Shown: positions 29,218 to 33,797 of the stretch, in pieces
How positions within the stretch are numbered: the first letter of the stretch is position 1
How the letters are laid out: each line of letters opens with the position of its first letter
Assembly: GCA_963666485.2 (NCBI GenBank)
Contig: CAXXUO010000006.1
Coordinates: forward strand, 32,001-96,000
Direction of reading: 5' to 3'
DNA length: 64,000 nt
From: Syntrophorhabdaceae bacterium
GTDB taxonomy: Bacteria > Desulfobacterota > Syntrophorhabdia > Syntrophorhabdales > Syntrophorhabdaceae
Notes under the pieces: model-generated
Told to the model about the DNA's origin: nothing
Database searches by the model: none
Seen by the model: the letters and a program-made list of their open reading frames with translations, nothing else
Made by a program: the position numbers and the translations under genes

Positions 29218-30462
29218 TTACCTTTTGTATTCGGAAACATGTTTCGGCCGTGTGAATGCGAGGGCGATGATAAAGCCGACGACCAACAGGCCCGCTGCGG
29301 TATAGAGCGACTGCTGTTTGTTGAATTCGGCGAACACAAAACCGCCGACAACGCCCGCCGCGCCCCATGCCGTGAGCAAGAAACCGTAGATCCTTCCAAT
29401 ATACGTCGGTCCGAACGAGTCGGCCGAGAAGGCAGGCATGACAGCAAAGCCGCCGCCCAGGCACGCAAGGAGATAGCAGGCGATGATCGTGAATACGAGC
29501 ACACTGCTGATCTGGGGAAGGATGACATACAGGATTGCCTGCGTAATGAACATGACCATGTAGGTGCCCTTCCGGCCGATCTTATCGGAAACGGCAGCCC
29601 AGAAAAGACGTCCCAATCCGTTGAATATAGACGCCGTGGCCAGGACGCCGCCACCGAGCACTGCCAGTTTCGCCGGGTCATCGACGTTCTGGGCAACCTT
29701 GATGACTTCCTGTGCCATGGGTGAAAGTTTCGACAGAAGCCCCATGCCTGCCGTGACGTTCAAAAAGAGCATGCCCCAGAGCATGTACCACTGGCGTGTC
29801 CGTTTTGCCTCTGTCCAACTGAAGGAATCGGCCGCGCTGACCGTTGTGGCAGCCGGTGTAAAGCCCTTGGGAAGCCAGCCCGCGGGGGGGTTTTTCAGGG
29901 TCGAGGAACAGATCAGGTTGAGCACCAGGTAGACCGCGCCGAGTATGAAAAAGGAGTTGGCCACACCGACATTAACGATAAGTTTGGGAATGATCATACC
30001 AATAAAGAATGCGCCAAAACCGAACCCCATGACAGCAAGGCCGGTTATCATACCGCGCTTATCCGGGAACCACCGGATCAAGGTAGCGATTGGCACGACA
30101 TAGGCGAGACCATTTCCGATACCGGCGATGACCCCGTAGCCGATGAGCAGGAACCAGAAGCTGCCGGCCTTGAGCGCCACGCCGCCCAGGAGAACACCAA
30201 CACCGTAAAAACAGGCGCCCAGTATTGCAACGAATTTCGGCCCTTTTTTATCAACGAGCATGCCGCCGAAAGCGGCGGAACAACCGATGACGCCGATGAT
30301 CAGCATGAACACGCGCGCTACCATCTTGGCTTCCCAACCCTGGGCGGCCACGATAGGTTTCACGAAAACCGACCATGCGTAAACGGTGCCCAGAATGAGC
30401 ATGATCACGACACCGGCGATTGCAAGAAACCAGCGCTTACTCTCCAAGTTTTGTTCACTCAT
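29218..30462 (-). CDS. OFA-family MFS transporter (oxalate:formate antiporter / L-lactate transporter-like)
   Basis: LGTVYAWSVF, RWFPDKRGMITGLAVMGFG, FNGLGRLFWAAVSDKIGR. Confidence 0.9.
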   Translation of the reverse strand: MSEQNLESKRWFLAIAGVVIMLILGTVYAWSVFVKPIVAAQGWEAKMVARVFMLIIGVIGCSAAFGGMLVDKKGPKFVAILGACFYGVGVLLGGVALKAGSFWFLLIGYGVIAGIGNGLAYVVPIATLIRWFPDKRGMITGLAVMGFGFGAFFIGMIIPKLIVNVGVANSFFILGAVYLVLNLICSSTLKNPPAGWLPKGFTPAATTVSAADSFSWTEAKRTRQWYMLWGMLFLNVTAGMGLLSKLSPMAQEVIKVAQNVDDPAKLAVLGGGVLATASIFNGLGRLFWAAVSDKIGRKGTYMVMFITQAILYVILPQISSVLVFTIIACYLLACLGGGFAVMPAFSADSFGPTYIGRIYGFLLTAWGAAGVVGGFVFAEFNKQQSLYTAAGLLVVGFIIALAFTRPKHVSEYKR

Positions 30463-30566
30463 GTAACAAACCTCCCCAGTTTAATTATTATTCAATGTAC
30501 GGAACAACGCCTCGCTGCTGTGTACCAGACTCCCCTTTTTATACCGGCGTGTCCTGTGGTTTTGTA

Positions 30567-30582
30567 TGCATGCTTTTTACCA
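30567..30582 (-). promoter_or_regulatory. Possible sigma54 -24/-12 promoter for the MFS gene
   Basis: Minus strand TGGTAAAAAGCATGCA gives GG-N10-GC spacing; AT-rich region upstream; imperfect consensus. Confidence 0.3.
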
Positions 30583-30834
30583 CCTTTTTTTTGACGTAGT
30601 CAACCTTTTTTGTATCTTCATGAAATCCGCACACCTGTAATTTTCCGCGGGAAACCTGAAAAATAACCGAAAATATAATTAAAAAACCTATCACATATTT
30701 TATAAACATTATTTTTCTTGAAGCCGGCGGAAAATAGCGCATGATGTGATATCATAAGCACTCCCGACATAATGAAAACCCCGGGGTGGAAAACCCCGGG
30801 GTTTCCTGGTCCCGGATCATTATCGGTCCTTACG

Positions 30835-32091
30835 TCATTTACCGCACAGGCGCTCCTCTGCGGCTTCGAGCGTGGCCAGTTTCTTGGCGAAAGCGAAACG
30901 TACCATTTTCTTGCCCATCCCTTTTGTTCCATAGAAGCACGATCCCGGAACGACCGCCACGCCGAGGTTGGAGGGCAGCCACCGCGCAAAGGAGTAATCG
31001 TCCCCGTCGAAATCCCAGTTGCTGAAATCGGCCATCACATAGTAGGAGCCCTGCGGGGCCGAGGCTGAGAAACCGGCCTTGTCGATAATCGACATCATTT
31101 TTGCGCGCCGCGCGGTGTAATCGGCCTGAAGCTGCGTGTAGTACGTGTCGGGAAGCTGAAGGACTGCCGCACACGCCGCCTGCAGCGGGGCAGGTGCGCA
31201 TATCGTCATAAAGTCATGAACGGTCCTCAGGATCGTGCTCAAGGGGTTCATGGCGCACGCGTACCCGAGCCGCCACCCCGTCATCGCGAATGTCTTGCCG
31301 AGGCCGCTGATCGTCACAGTGCGTTCAGCCATGCCGGGTACCGACGCGAGCGGGACGTGCCTGAGCCCATCGTAGGTTATATGTTCGTAGATCTCGTCGG
31401 TTATAGCGACGACATTGAATTCCTGGCACAGCCCGGCGATGCCTTCCATTTCGTCCTGCGTGAAGACGTGTCCGGTCGGGTTGTGCGGGGTATTGACGAT
31501 AATTGCCTTCGTCCTTTCGTTGAATGCGTCACGAAGCCAGTCGAGGTTCAGGGTATAATCAGGCGCTTCAAGGGGCACAAAGCGGGCCGTGCCGCCCGAG
31601 AAGACCACGGCGGGGAGATATCCCTCATGGTACGGTTCGATAATGATGACCTCATCGCCCTTGTTGATGATCCCCATCAGTGTCGCAAGAATGGCCTCCG
31701 TGACCCCGCACGTGACCGTTACGTGTTCGTTGGGGTCGAATTTCAGGCCATACCATTTCTCCATCTTGGCCGTGATGGCCTCGCGCAGGGGAAGCGTCCC
31801 CCAGGTGATCGTGTACTGATTTCCGCCCGACTCCAGGGCCTTCTGGGCCGCCTCGATCGCTTCGCGCGGCGGATCGAAATCCGGGAACCCCTGCGACAGG
31901 TTGATCGCGTTGTGCGTAATTGCCAGCCGCGTCATTTCCCTGATGAAAGATTCCCGGATCATGTGGAGGCGCTGAGCGCCGCCTCCCTGGACAGGGTCGA
32001 ACCTCATGCCGAAAGTCGACAGCTTTTCTCCCTCGAGAACGTTGAGGGCCCTCTGGCCCTGCCGTGCCTCCATTTCTTCCCGACGATTCAT
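30835..32091 (-). CDS. PLP-dependent class I/II aminotransferase (YbdL/kynurenine/aromatic aminotransferase-like)
   Basis: AINLSQGFPDF, NTPHNPTG, DEIYEH, SGLGKTFAMTGWRLG; RBS AGGAGG. Confidence 0.93.
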   Translation of the reverse strand: MNRREEMEARQGQRALNVLEGEKLSTFGMRFDPVQGGGAQRLHMIRESFIREMTRLAITHNAINLSQGFPDFDPPREAIEAAQKALESGGNQYTITWGTLPLREAITAKMEKWYGLKFDPNEHVTVTCGVTEAILATLMGIINKGDEVIIIEPYHEGYLPAVVFSGGTARFVPLEAPDYTLNLDWLRDAFNERTKAIIVNTPHNPTGHVFTQDEMEGIAGLCQEFNVVAITDEIYEHITYDGLRHVPLASVPGMAERTVTISGLGKTFAMTGWRLGYACAMNPLSTILRTVHDFMTICAPAPLQAACAAVLQLPDTYYTQLQADYTARRAKMMSIIDKAGFSASAPQGSYYVMADFSNWDFDGDDYSFARWLPSNLGVAVVPGSCFYGTKGMGKKMVRFAFAKKLATLEAAEERLCGK

Positions 32092-32153
32092 TTGTTTCCT
32101 CCTTTATGGATTATTGAATTTTCATTCATCGTTTCCTCCAATTTTTGCCCAAT

Positions 32154-32223
32154 AAAAAAGGGCCATGGAGTTTTCCATAGCCCTAAAAAGCTTTAAGGGC
32201 CATGGGTTTAGCACCCATGGCCC
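32154..32223 (-). terminator. Attenuator: hairpin A (32197-32223) and intrinsic terminator (32154-32184)
   Basis: GGGCCAUGGGU-GCUAA-ACCCAUGGCCC, then AGGGCUAUGGA-AAAC-UCCAUGGCCCU-UUUUU; arms are mutually exclusive with an antiterminator. Confidence 0.85.
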
Positions 32224-32237
32224 CTTTCTTTACCCTG

Positions 32238-32324
32238 TCAGGAGAAAGATCGACACGAGTGCCCGGGAGAATAATAGTAGTAATAATAAGAGGTGAGCCG
32301 GATAGAGGTGTCGTTTCTCAACAT
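32238..32324 (-). CDS. Tyrosine-rich leader peptide MLRNDTSIRLTSYYYYYYSPGHSCRSFS
   Basis: ATG at 32324, six consecutive Tyr codons (32271-32288), TGA at 32238; lies between a promoter and a terminator. Confidence 0.82.
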   Translation of the reverse strand: MLRNDTSIRLTSYYYYYYSPGHSCRSFS

Positions 32325-32333
32325 GTTAGCGAA

Positions 32334-32362
32334 AGTCTAATGGAGCGGATAGGGGTTGTCAA
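32334..32362 (-). promoter_or_regulatory. Sigma70 promoter for the leader/aminotransferase transcript
   Basis: TTGACA-17 nt-TAGACT on the minus strand, 9 nt before the leader ATG. Confidence 0.8.
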
Positions 32363-32379
32363 CAAAAATATTTCGCGTC

Positions 32380-32838
32380 TTATTTCAGGGGCATGAAAAG
32401 CACGGTCTGCAGATCCTCCGGCGATGTCGTACCGGGGTCGTTCAGATAGAACTCGTAACTTTCCCCTGTCGGTTCGTGTCCGTTCTCGCTTATCCACTCA
32501 GCGAGCGCCATGTATGCGGATTCGATCTCCTCGTACGGTCCCGTGTGCACCGTGGTGGCGGCATTGGCGAGGACTATTTCCCTGCAGTCGATCTCCCCGT
32601 GGCCTGAAACCATCTTTGTGATGGGAAGGCACATCTCGACGTCGGGTTCGTCGGACAGCATGTCGTGATAGATAGCAAACGGAGGCCCCGAAATGTCTTC
32701 GCCGATCTCTTCGAGATACGCTATAAGGCGGGCGAACGATCCTTCGAATATCTCCGGAAGGTCTTCAGCTGTCGCTCGCGACCTGATCATGATCACCGGT
32801 TGCGGGTCTATACTGCTGAGCTCACAGGTGTATGGCAT
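32380..32838 (-). CDS. GyrI-like small-molecule-binding protein
   Basis: GPPFAIYH, TVHTGPYEEI..AY..L..WI, YEFYLNDP. Confidence 0.88.
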   Translation of the reverse strand: MPYTCELSSIDPQPVIMIRSRATAEDLPEIFEGSFARLIAYLEEIGEDISGPPFAIYHDMLSDEPDVEMCLPITKMVSGHGEIDCREIVLANAATTVHTGPYEEIESAYMALAEWISENGHEPTGESYEFYLNDPGTTSPEDLQTVLFMPLK

Positions 32839-32969
32839 TATGTCGCCTCCGTCAGGAATGTATTTCCTCATCAATCTACATGATACGGACGGCAAAAAGC
32901 AATTTAAAATCTTTACAATTCGGGGGGGATACGGCTAGAGTTTGGTATTCTAAAACAGGGGAGGATAGT

Positions 32970-33797
32970 ATGGTCAAAACATACGTCACGGTCTTGGGGG
33001 CAGTGCTGGCGTTGCTCGTTATGCCCGGCATGGGACTGTGCCAGGGAGATGCTTCCCGCGATTATCCGTCGGTCCTCAAGAATGTTCACGAAGAGCTCCT
33101 ACGATCGTTCGCGCAACTCGACGGGGACCTGTCGAACGCTGCCGGCCGCATCGCAAAGTCGGGTCTCACAGGAAACGATGCCCGGGCCGCGCTCAGAGGT
33201 CTCTGTGCGGATAAGGTCTACGCGATCGATTGCGCCGCCGTCAATAGTGCCGGGGTTATGGTGACGATCGAGCCGCCGGCGTTCAGGAAATTTGAAGGCG
33301 TCAGCATCAGCAAGCAGGACCAGGTGATCGCTTTGCAGAAAACAAAACAGGCGGTCCTGAGCCGTGTTTTCCGGTCGGAAGAGGGCATAGACGCGGTCGA
33401 TATGGAGCACCCGGTATTTTCCGCGGACCAGGCATTCATGGGTTCGGTCAGCATTCTTTTCAAGCCCGAGGAATTCCTGTCGTTCGTGATCGGGCCGCTC
33501 GTCCGGGGGTTTTCCTCCGCCGAGATATGGGTTGTGCAGAAAGATGGAAGGATACTCTACGATATACACAGGAATGAGATCGGCCGGATGCTTTTTTCGG
33601 ACCCTCTCTATAAGCCCTTCCCTGAGCTTATCAGGTTGGGAGAAAAAATAGTTCGACAGGCGGAAGGGCACGGTTTTTACGATTTCACAGATGCCAAAAC
33701 AAAATTGATCATACGGAAAGAAGCGTTCTGGACAACGGTGGGGATGCACGGCACCGAGTGGCGGATCGTCGCGTCCCGGCCCGTTGCCGGAAAGTAG
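32970..33797 (+). CDS. Exported Cache-domain protein
   Basis: Signal peptide; VLSRVFRSEEG..AVDMEHPV, WVVQKDGRILYD, GTEWRIV. Confidence 0.65.
   Translation: MVKTYVTVLGAVLALLVMPGMGLCQGDASRDYPSVLKNVHEELLRSFAQLDGDLSNAAGRIAKSGLTGNDARAALRGLCADKVYAIDCAAVNSAGVMVTIEPPAFRKFEGVSISKQDQVIALQKTKQAVLSRVFRSEEGIDAVDMEHPVFSADQAFMGSVSILFKPEEFLSFVIGPLVRGFSSAEIWVVQKDGRILYDIHRNEIGRMLFSDPLYKPFPELIRLGEKIVRQAEGHGFYDFTDAKTKLIIRKEAFWTTVGMHGTEWRIVASRPVAGK

Follow-up and report, generated by a model that had tools for sequence, protein, structure and literature searches.

We found that the window (the whole 64,000-nucleotide stretch of DNA analysed here) carries on its minus strand a leader that is very probably a leader-peptide transcription attenuator, likely sensing charged tRNA-Tyr and controlling a single aminotransferase gene. 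Related genomes, sister leaders, and folding all support this reading, which the original prediction had drawn from the same DNA. The elements of the leader and its target, in the direction of transcription, are as follows.

32334..32362, minus strand: promoter, TTGACA (32362-32357), 17 nt, and TAGACT (32339-32334), a 10/12 match to consensus
32238..32324, minus strand: leader ORF of 28 codons plus stop, nearly leaderless and without a Shine-Dalgarno sequence; ATG at 32324, 9 nt past the -10 box
32308..32313, minus strand: S0, CGACAC, the 5' arm of a helix enclosing the Tyr run in the minimum-energy fold
32271..32288, minus strand: six consecutive Tyr codons, TAT TAT TAC TAC TAT TAT, codons 13-18 of the leader ORF, read from the sequence
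32251..32263, minus strand: S1, GGCACUCGUGUCG; in folding, its 3' part pairs with S0 and its first 10 nt with the 5' arm and loop of hairpin A
32227..32249, minus strand: P1, a small hairpin containing the leader stop codon (folding; 80.1% of cells paired in alignment A1, which comprises 18 orthologous leaders)
32195..32225, minus strand: hairpin A, 13 pairs with a loop of 5 (fold; 99.6% paired in the alignment)
32153..32184, minus strand: intrinsic terminator T, an 11-pair G+C-rich stem (32184-32159) with a loop of 4, followed by UUUUUU (fold; 91.4% paired)
32088..32139, minus strand: second short ORF of 13 codons (32129-32088), MNENSIIHKGGNK, with a GGAGG of its own and a TGA stop that shares ATGA with the start of the aminotransferase gene, read from the sequence
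30835..32091, minus strand: aminotransferase of 418 aa, YbdL / kynurenine-aminotransferase-like (class I/II, Pfam PF00155, E 1.2e-58)
30775..30801, minus strand: terminator-like hairpin past the aminotransferase gene (sequence and fold, -27.1 kcal/mol)

The promoter, ORF, Tyr run, hairpins, and U-tailed terminator were all found where the original prediction had placed them; the features are real, and only the limits of hairpin A required revision, as it runs two pairs further (32225-32195). The TTGACA/TAGACT pair is the best promoter-like site in 30400-33000, and its -35 hexamer is invariant in alignment A1. With 2-3 nt predicted ahead of the AUG, the mRNA is not strictly leaderless. The ORF encodes MLRNDTSIRLTSYYYYYYSPGHSCRSFS and ends at UGA (32240-32238). 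Searching both strands of the 3.77-Mb genome for at least five consecutive TAY codons revealed a single occurrence, the leader run itself. With six Tyr among 28 codons, the ORF has the clustered codons for the (here presumed) pathway amino acid that mark leader-peptide attenuators, and terminator T separates the leader ORF from the structural gene, as in an attenuator. The 243-nt leader was also more stable than 200/200 shuffled sequences (z = -4.17).

Comparison of 19 orthologous loci (the window's genome, 17 of its genus, and one of another family) revealed that the promoter, an ATG 7-9 nt past the -10 box, the stop, two hairpins, and the U tract are common to all 19 genomes. Counting every helix of the leader, four hairpins are conserved over this set. 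The distance from the -10 box to the ATG is 9 nt in 15 and 7 nt in 2 of the 17 loci with a script-placed promoter. Conserved Tyr runs had been named as a check on the prediction, and we observed 5-9 Tyr codons upstream of the orthologous aminotransferases, a length that varies by whole codons only; the last Tyr codon precedes the stop by 10 codons in 18/18, and the stop lies 14-16 nt ahead of the GGCC of hairpin A. A Tyr-frame ATG is present in 18/19 genomes, counting starts after the predicted transcription start that were placed by script (17/19) or, for G006, by alignment. These sequence comparisons indirectly support translation of the leader ORF in the Tyr frame. The second short ORF and its ATGA overlap are found in 18/19 orthologous loci, the exception being G028. 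A metagenome scan with the aminotransferase returned only three orthologous loci, in which S1 and hairpin A showed no further variants.

We modelled the switch by analogy with the his leader (A:B, C:D, E:F vs B:C, D:E). When Tyr is ample, the ribosome would traverse the leader and S0 (CGACAC) would pair with S1 (GUGUCG); with S0:S1 closed, hairpin A would form, T would form, and transcription would stop. When Tyr is scarce, the ribosome would stall in the Tyr run and, because this run occupies the loop that S0 and S1 would close, would keep the S0:S1 helix open. The free S1 (GGCACUCGUG, 32263-32254) could then pair with the emerging 5' arm and loop of hairpin A (CAUGGGUGCU, 32219-32210; 10 pairs, 3 of them G-U), with P1 stacked atop this S1:A5' helix in the read-through fold. 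The freed 3' arm of A (CCAUGGCCCU, 32205-32196) would in turn pair with the 5' arm of T (AGGGCUAUGG, 32184-32175; 10 pairs, 1 of them G-U), blocking T and permitting read-through into the aminotransferase gene. Hairpin A is, in this model, the anti-antiterminator of the window's leader.

Folding of the complete leader gave hairpin A plus T as the minimum-energy fold wherever the ribosome was placed, on any Tyr codon or on the stop. We therefore rejected a switch driven by thermodynamics alone on the full-length transcript, and since the terminator fold is always that of minimum energy, the switch must be kinetic; the alternative fold appeared only in stepwise (co-transcriptional) folding. We modelled the decision stage, at which the 5' arm of T is out and its 3' arm is not yet, at equilibrium. 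At this stage the full leader retained hairpin A (P at least 0.99 in 18/18); with the ribosome holding the 5' part at the second Tyr codon, the A3':T5' antiterminator was preferred in 13/18 leaders (14/19 in the wider set) and was the minimum-energy fold of the window's leader. Five of the 19 (G014, G003, G009, G006, and G015) showed no flip to the antiterminator in this equilibrium model. Shuffling S1 abolished the antiterminator preference (mean P 0.00-0.14); in folding, S1 acts as the breaker of hairpin A that had been proposed at the outset. The accompanying proposal, that a ribosome completing translation resets the switch by covering the breaker, probably does not hold, as a ribosome at the stop codon would cover just the 3' part of S1. 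The 5' helix CGACAC:GUGUCG around the Tyr run, missing from that earlier model, sequesters the breaker in the fold, and sequestration rather than ribosome cover is what probably resets the switch.

Covarying stems, also suggested as a check, were observed for the sequestering helix of the Tyr type and for the invading helix of its Trp sister, but not for the S1:A5' and A3':T5' helices of the Tyr type. The terminator fold kept 91.2% of cells paired, with 7 pairs changed on both sides (0/500 shuffles as high), and across 18 leaders, 4/7 pairs of the S0:S1 helix were changed on both sides. In the Tyr leaders, the S1:A5' and A3':T5' helices hardly vary and show no covariation; they contain just two one-sided changes, both compatible, and their 87.9% paired cells are no better than shuffles. 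The cross-pairing of A and T kept 92.2% of cells paired. In the Trp sister leaders (24 genomes, 4 families), the invading helix was 97.9% paired with 5/12 pairs changed on both sides (at most 1/500 shuffles as high), and the hairpin competing with it was 98.1% paired with 5/13 pairs changed on both sides.

The same genome contains a Phe-run leader, MMRMFSFFFGFFFFRRLHPGLPLC, upstream of two tandem aminotransferases, and a Trp-run leader, MMNVQINNWWWWRKY, upstream of a TrpB-like gene, an aminotransferase, and indolepyruvate oxidoreductase genes; the Tyr leader shares its GGCCATGG hairpins with both. Retrieval by hairpin pattern alone yielded 80 loci, 54 of them with an aromatic-rich leader. Pure Tyr runs precede the window-type aminotransferase, Phe or Tyr/Phe runs a PRK06836-type aminotransferase, and mixed Tyr/Phe/Trp leaders, in relatives, DAHP synthase. 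In 54/54 leaders, the aromatic run is followed by a segment able to pair with the 5' arm of hairpin A (median -19.0 vs -12.5 kcal/mol for shuffles), and this pairing is retained while the encoded residues vary (HP, RP, CP, HS, HL); the S1 duplex score is modest in the Tyr type (z -0.8 to -2.8). Pattern matches in Frankia, Streptomyces, Pseudomonas, and others, a class defined as matches outside the Syntrophorhabdus group and its deltaproteobacterial relatives, had no leader ORF and were taken as chance palindromes. A first generic leader-peptide scan of the genome was too strict, missing the Phe leader, and is uninformative on other amino acids. Rfam holds leader families for Trp, His, Phe, Leu, and Thr. 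An Rfam cmscan of 31800-32700 (E up to 10) returned no leader family, the best matches being unrelated sRNA models at 22 bits vs gathering scores of 41-43; the Phe and Trp sister loci were likewise without a match to an Rfam leader family, and the T-box model RF00230 had no match in the leader region or the whole genome.

The design of the switch itself admits a simpler version, in which the leader is still a Tyr attenuator and S1 competes with hairpin A only, A being the real first terminator and T a back-up copy. All four arms of A and T are versions of one palindrome, GGCCATGGCC, and the A3':T5' pairing could thus have arisen simply because a terminator was duplicated; leaders of the DAHP synthase type manage with a single hairpin and a U run, and 15/19 Tyr leaders have 5-8 T in the 9 nt after hairpin A. 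The window and its three closest relatives, however, have only 1-3 (3 in G000 and G011, 2 in G003, and 1 in G014), so T must terminate there. The conserved cross-pairing of A and T, together with the antiterminator being the minimum-energy fold of the stalled leader at the decision stage, also argues against the simpler arrangement, and we regard it as unlikely, though worth keeping in mind.

The remaining alternatives dispense with Tyr sensing by a ribosome. The run could be read in another frame (Leu: CTC TTA TTA TTA CTA CTA TTA), with leucine or isoleucine/threonine being sensed. Changes between TAT and TAC are silent in the Leu frame too (TTA/CTA), and the frame argument consequently rests on start and stop codons: as the original prediction had it for this locus, a start codon is missing from the Leu frame in 18/19 orthologues (ATG, GTG, or TTG after the predicted start) and from the Ile/Thr frame in 19/19. 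In the exception, G002, a single inserted nucleotide puts the ATG in the Leu frame, and the aminotransferase gene is broken as well. The mixtures of Phe, Tyr, and Trp in the sister leaders are moreover sensible only in the aromatic frame, which makes sensing through another frame very improbable. We assign a similarly slight chance to the view that the UAY repeats and hairpins serve as a target for a protein or other factor (TRAP-like or riboswitch-like), the ORF being incidental. Hairpin sequences nearly invariant over three leader types could mark a binding site, but the start, stop, frame, and whole-codon variation of the ORF are conserved, Phe or Trp codons replace the Tyr run precisely at those loci that have a different downstream gene, and neither an Rfam family nor the T-box model matched. 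That the Tyr-rich peptide is a functional small protein (e.g. a modified-peptide precursor), with the hairpins serving as ordinary terminators without switching, is extremely improbable. Its C-terminal GHSCR(T/S)FS is conserved at the protein level; this conservation coincides with the RNA pairing segments, however, and in other family members the pairing persists despite different residues. A terminator standing immediately ahead of a gene, without a separate promoter between the two, furthermore implies regulated read-through.

We characterised the gene under the control of the putative Tyr attenuator from its family and its genome context. The nearest solved relatives of the aminotransferase are YbdL, kynurenine aminotransferases, and a Pyrococcus aromatic aminotransferase, placing it in a subfamily that uses aromatic substrates. 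Scores for the NCBIfam models fell below their cut-offs (methionine aminotransferase YbdL, 408.6 vs 498 bits; PRK08912, 407.3 vs 553; PRK07777, 385.9 vs 420), and the enzyme is accordingly a relative, not a member, of these three families by NCBI cut-offs. The terminator-like hairpin after the gene, which was not listed by the scan that gave the promoter, hairpin A, and T, indicates that the unit holds a single gene. A downstream MFS transporter was rejected as a member of the unit, being syntenic in no orthologous locus and separated by this hairpin. Searches of the genome gave no chorismate synthase, chorismate mutase (CM_2), prephenate dehydrogenase, or prephenate dehydratase. The leader had been taken to imply a tyrosine/aromatic or a prephenate aminotransferase: an arylpyruvate (aromatic) aminotransferase fits, and a prephenate aminotransferase is unlikely in this genome because the shikimate-to-prephenate enzymes were not found. 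We predict that the enzyme converts 4-hydroxyphenylpyruvate, a substrate inferred only from regulation and family, to tyrosine.

On a broader and more tentative level, for which the odds lie somewhat below even, Syntrophorhabdus and its order may use one home-grown leaderless attenuator family (Tyr, Phe, Trp, and mixed) to govern the supply of all three aromatic amino acids. In organisms without the shikimate-to-prephenate route, the Tyr leader would mark a dedicated tyrosine-forming aminotransferase, whose 4-hydroxyphenylpyruvate would come from aryl acids through salvage by ferredoxin-dependent oxidoreductases. If true, this would be the first tyrosine-specific ribosomal attenuator, together with a hidden route of aromatic amino acid salvage in syntrophic aromatic degraders. 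The Tyr leader itself suggests a likely role (tyrosine formation) for an aminotransferase that family models leave unnamed, and points to a supply of aromatic amino acids independent of the shikimate pathway in a syntroph group rich in uncultured members. A pure Tyr run amid Phe, Trp, and mixed versions offers a natural system in which codon identity would set the specificity of one RNA scaffold. The Tyr leader family also lets one ask how switches work on nearly leaderless mRNAs, and how a design with one terminator gave rise to one with two.

Classical attenuators have been characterised for Trp, His, Phe, Leu, Thr, and Ile/Val. In the his leader (hisL of Escherichia coli and Salmonella; Rfam His_leader), six segments form three hairpins when terminating and two shifted hairpins in read-through. 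The window's leader resembles hisL in its run of identical codons within a short ORF, in its six predicted pairing segments that would form three vs two hairpins, and in the proposed breaking of the first helix by stalling. Unlike hisL, it would sense Tyr rather than His, it has no Shine-Dalgarno sequence and just 2-3 nt between the predicted 5' end and the AUG, its codon run is in the loop of the first helix rather than in an arm, and its target is a single aminotransferase gene; hisL has no sequence or model match to it.

The pheL-pheA and trpL-trpE attenuators of enterobacteria, as described in an excerpt of PMC11802643, sense aromatic amino acids, as the window's leader would, by ribosome stalling that decides between terminator and antiterminator. 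The hairpin family of this genome differs from theirs, its Tyr, Phe, and Trp leaders matching no Rfam leader family, and its targets are aminotransferases, a TrpB-like enzyme, and an indolepyruvate oxidoreductase. According to the same excerpt, the aroR leader before aroF in Corynebacterium glutamicum (Neshat et al. 2014; PMC11802643) contains Phe-Tyr-Phe and responds to Phe, with Tyr availability having no effect. It has Tyr among its sensing residues and an aromatic-pathway target, and thereby resembles the mixed Tyr/Phe/Trp DAHP synthase leaders of the relatives; the window's type, unlike aroR, is a pure run of 5-9 Tyr codons. Within the literature extracts on tyrosine attenuators we found two related cases, this Phe-Tyr-Phe leader and a predicted tyrS leader in Deinococcus deserti, where an extract of PMC4007540 describes a Tyr-related leader ORF of 42 nt starting at or next to the 5' end. 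A pure Tyr leader, called unusual in the original prediction, is indeed rare, but on the evidence of that extract it has a precedent, itself a prediction. Compared by the description given there, the Deinococcus leader differs from the window's in its target (tyrS, not a gene for a biosynthetic enzyme) and its phylum. In mycobacteria, according to a partial text of bioRxiv 10.1101/834739, leaderless short ORFs with poly-cysteine runs attenuate downstream genes in response to an amino acid. They share with the window's leader a single-codon run in an ORF at or near the 5' end and, compared by description, differ in using Cys, not Tyr. The window's leader, whose sequence family matches no Rfam model and whose Tyr specificity had been predicted rather than characterised before, would be a known kind of switch.

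The layout described in the original prediction is confirmed in the window. The top promoter-like site between 30400 and 33000 is TTGACA-17-TAGACT at 32362–32334, and the leader ATG at 32324 lies nine bases past the -10 box, followed by a run of tyrosine codons and two hairpins.

Features of the leader and its gene in the window
32362–32357 and 32339–32334, minus strand: promoter, TTGACA, 17 nt, TAGACT (10 of 12 consensus positions)
32324 (ATG) to 32240–32238 (stop UGA), minus strand: leader ORF MLRNDTSIRLTSYYYYYYSPGHSCRSFS, from sequence reading
32313–32308, minus strand: segment S0, CGACAC, in the minimum-energy fold
32288–32271, minus strand: six Tyr codons, from sequence reading
32256–32251, minus strand: 3' part of segment S1, GUGUCG, pairing with S0 in the minimum-energy fold
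32249–32227, minus strand: hairpin P1, containing the leader stop codon, in the minimum-energy fold
32225–32195, minus strand: hairpin A, 13 pairs, loop of 5
32184–32159, minus strand: terminator hairpin T, 11 pairs, loop of 4, then UUUUUU
32088–32139, minus strand: second short ORF, 13 codons with its own GGAGG, between T and the aminotransferase
32091–30835, minus strand: class I/II aminotransferase gene, by family match

Both complementarities listed originally were borne out over 10 pairs each: CCAUGGCCCU (32205–32196) with AGGGCUAUGG (32184–32175), including one G-U pair, and GGCACUCGUG (32263–32254) with CAUGGGUGCU (32219–32210), including three. Folding of the 243-nt leader beat 200/200 shuffles (z = -4.17), and a run of at least five consecutive TAY codons occurs once on both strands of the 3.77-Mb genome, in this leader. 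An Rfam search of the leader matched no family, and a T-box search of the whole genome found none.

Comparative evidence lends good support to the reading as a tyrosine-sensing leader-peptide attenuator. We searched 41 genomes (that of the window and 40 relatives) for the aminotransferase at E ≤ 1e-60 and found it in 21: the window's genome, 17 of 19 same-genus genomes, a genome of another family (G028; 71% identity), and two with distant homologues (49% and 37% identity). The leader is present at 19/19 loci with at least 70% identity and absent before both distant homologues. Conserved Tyr runs, proposed as a check on the device, thus precede the orthologues at 19 loci, with 5–9 Tyr codons preceded by 8–13 codons. 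The last Tyr codon stands exactly 10 codons before the stop in 18/18 leaders, and the stop lies 14–16 nt ahead of the GGCC of hairpin A; all changes in length thus come as whole codons, placed ahead of the run or inside it, and behind the run the geometry does not vary. The ATG follows the -10 box by 9 nt in 15 and by 7 nt in 2 of the 17 loci with script-placed promoters; outside these, a contig end truncates one locus, and another (G006) was given a wrong hexamer, its promoter/ATG layout being the same as the others in the alignment of 18 orthologous Tyr leaders.

TAT/TAC exchanges are silent in the Leu frame too (TTA/CTA) and therefore give no evidence on the reading frame; start codons decide. 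Past the predicted transcription start, the Tyr frame has a start codon at 17/19 loci by script, plus G006 by alignment, the Ile/Thr frame at 0/19, and the Leu frame at 1/19. The claim that the alternative frames have no start codon holds in the window and, for Ile/Thr, at every locus; the Leu-frame exception is G002 (extracted loci L020, L024 and L059), where one extra base before the run puts the leader ATG in that frame. On the same contig the G002 aminotransferase gene is split, with two TGA and one TAA internally, which points either to decay of the locus or to indel errors in that assembly.

A hairpin-motif search of the window's genome revealed two further devices of the same build, on contigs C1 and C7.

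Sister leaders in the window's genome
C1, about 1177430–1177640 (1430–1640 of extracted locus L002; also L118), minus strand: Phe-run leader MMRMFSFFFGFFFFRRLHPGLPLC
C7, 1710–8733 of extracted locus L117, plus strand: Trp-run leader MMNVQINNWWWWRKY and its genes

The C1 leader reads TTGACA, 17 nt, TTTAAT, 6 nt and then the leaderless Phe-run ORF; its hairpin (GGCCATGGGTGC...CCCATGGCC) is the same as that of the window. Another hairpin, this one trailed by a U run, comes next, ahead of two tandem PRK06836-type aminotransferases that are mutually 54% identical. The leaderless C7 leader, with two GGCCATGG hairpins, precedes genes for a TrpB-like enzyme (PRK12391), a 367-aa aminotransferase and indolepyruvate ferredoxin oxidoreductase, and Trp leaders of this build are present in all four sampled families of the order. 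The oxidoreductase alpha subunit is represented by several ORFs. Between the oxidoreductase genes (L117, 6715–6872) lies a long near-perfect palindrome, which scored 66.9 bits on the plus and 64.2 bits on the minus strand against Rfam WsnRNA46 (gathering threshold 65.3); it probably represents a repeat element and not this sRNA.

A pattern scan for the hairpin only, with one genome per species, gave 92 places, 80 of which were fetched. An aromatic-rich leader ORF precedes the hairpin in 54 of the 80, under record titles of Syntrophorhabdus, Syntrophorhabdaceae, Syntrophorhabdales, Syntrophaceae, Syntrophobacterales, Thermodesulfobacteriota and unnamed deltaproteobacteria; no such ORF precedes the remaining 26, most of which come from other phyla. 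Pure Tyr runs precede the YbdL-like aminotransferase of the window type, Phe runs or Tyr/Phe mixtures the PRK06836-type aminotransferase, and Tyr/Phe/Trp mixtures genuine DAHP synthase. That codon content tracks the downstream gene argues more strongly than anything else for translation of the runs as aromatic codons and for sensing of the amino acids that they specify. Separately, Syntrophorhabdus aromaticivorans UI and a related MAG (L089 and L057, about 1501–1525) carry a hairpin of this sequence class (GGCCATGGGTGCTACACCCATGGCC with TTTT) and no aromatic leader ORF upstream; the hairpin could be an ordinary terminator or a relic.

We then consider the folds of the switch. In the minimum-energy fold the S0:S1 helix places the Tyr run in a loop, followed by P1, A and T. 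Applied to 18 leaders, this terminating fold paired 91.2% of cells with seven pairs changed on both sides, which 0/500 shuffles reached, and the S0:S1 helix showed both-side changes at 4/7 pairs; covarying stems, a further check named in the original prediction, are thus found in the orthologues. The proposed alternative structures emerged in stepwise folding, but the complete transcript always folded into A and T, at every ribosome placement. With the 5' part held by a ribosome halted on the Tyr codons, S1 takes the emerging 5' arm and loop of A, with P1 atop (-22.7 kcal/mol). After T's 5' arm has emerged and before its 3' arm follows, the structure of lowest energy combines this invading helix with the antiterminator, a pairing of A's 3' arm with T's 5' arm (-39.7 to -40.9 kcal/mol). 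If the 5' part is free instead, each step retains S0:S1 and hairpin A. At the decision stage, the full leader gave hairpin A a probability of at least 0.99 in 18/18 orthologues, and a leader shortened to mimic a ribosome sitting on Tyr codon 2 preferred the antiterminator in 13/18 (14/19 with G002); shuffling S1 lowered the mean antiterminator probability to 0.00–0.14. The equilibrium model gave no flip to the antiterminator in five genomes (G014, G003, G009, G006 and G015).

The read-through fold shows no covariation in the Tyr leaders (87.9% of cells paired, not above shuffles), because S1 and both arms of A and of T are nearly invariant. The nine pairs of the invading helix are intact in 18/18, the two one-sided changes (both G014) still pairing, and in the Tyr type this predicted helix rests on conservation and folding. 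A post-run segment complementary to the hairpin 5' arm is present in all 54 leaders located by the hairpin alone, with a median duplex energy of -19.0 vs -12.5 kcal/mol for shuffles and z < -2 in 28/54; its encoded residues vary (His-Pro, Arg-Pro, Cys-Pro, His-Ser, His-Leu), and G-U/A-U exchanges preserve pairing. In an alignment of Trp leaders from 24 genomes of the four families, the hairpin apex sequence differs from the Tyr type, and the helix between the stop-codon segment and the apex paired 97.9% of cells with both-side changes at 5/12 pairs, a level reached by at most 1/500 shuffles; the competing hairpin paired 98.1% with both-side changes at 5/13. Because this helix covaries, invasion of the first hairpin by the post-run segment is supported in a paralogue.

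Downstream, the regulated unit appears to be the aminotransferase alone, since a terminator-like hairpin follows the gene and an MFS transporter further downstream is syntenic in no orthologue and lies behind the aminotransferase in the window's genome only; we therefore rejected the transporter as part of the unit. The upstream GyrI-like gene is syntenic in orthologues. The transporter itself (29218–30462, minus strand) exceeds the SfMCT L-lactate transporter model cut-off (381.6 vs 320 bits). The second short ORF, whose TGA stop shares bases with the aminotransferase start (ATGA), is kept in 18/19 orthologous loci at 13–15 codons with variable sequence, which suggests translational coupling.

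The best NCBIfam matches of the aminotransferase (PRK08912, PRK07777 and methionine aminotransferase) are all below cut-offs. Among proteins of solved structure, those closest to it are Rv0858c, YbdL, kynurenine aminotransferases I and III, and a Pyrococcus aromatic aminotransferase. Prephenate dehydrogenase, prephenate dehydratase, chorismate synthase and CM_2 chorismate mutase were not found in the window's genome (99.14% complete), with searches that were positive in 13–14 of 14 control genomes. For DAHP synthase the search covered DAHP_synth_1, whose sole member in this genome is KDO8P synthase. Chorismate synthase is patchy (19/41 genomes overall, 7/19 in the genus), and the Tyr leader with its aminotransferase is found in genomes with and without it. 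Of the roles originally proposed, tyrosine/aromatic aminotransferase fits, but prephenate aminotransferase is unlikely here because the prephenate and chorismate enzymes were not found. An arylpyruvate aminotransferase making tyrosine from 4-hydroxyphenylpyruvate would fit. That these enzymes were not found hints that salvage may supply the aromatic amino acids in this genome, and the indolepyruvate oxidoreductase genes of the Trp unit may point to aryl acid salvage as the keto-acid source.

The designs vary in detail. In the DAHP synthase type, the terminator is one hairpin with a U run and the invading segment stands just ahead of the stop codon, where a stop-bound ribosome would mask it. 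The invading segment of the Tyr type lies 10–24 nt upstream of the stop, so that a terminating ribosome would cover just its 3' part, and we think that the extra S0:S1 helix exists for this reason. In the 9 nt past hairpin A, 15/19 Tyr leaders have 5–8 T, and those of the window and of the three genomes nearest to it 1–3; hairpin A may itself be a terminator in most species, and in the window it would act as anti-antiterminator with T as the terminator. Judged from sequence, the device is in kind a likely tyrosine-sensing leader-peptide attenuator; towards the six-segment mechanism in detail we lean only slightly. This six-segment logic resembles that of the his leader.

The full-text literature, which leaves subscription journals largely uncovered, yielded no characterised tyrosine-run attenuator and no Syntrophorhabdus attenuators. 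The trpL, pheL, pheST and Corynebacterium aroR (Phe-Tyr-Phe) leaders are described in a review (PMC11802643), according to which aroR responds to Phe, not Tyr. For Deinococcus deserti, a transcriptome study (PMC4007540) puts forward 14 predicted leaderless leader peptides, with a Tyr-related one predicted before tyrS, and leaderless poly-Cys attenuators are reported from mycobacteria (bioRxiv 10.1101/834739). The proposed switch is of a known kind; new are its so far uncharacterised specificity, its nearly leaderless start, and a previously undescribed aromatic attenuator family in Syntrophorhabdus and relatives.
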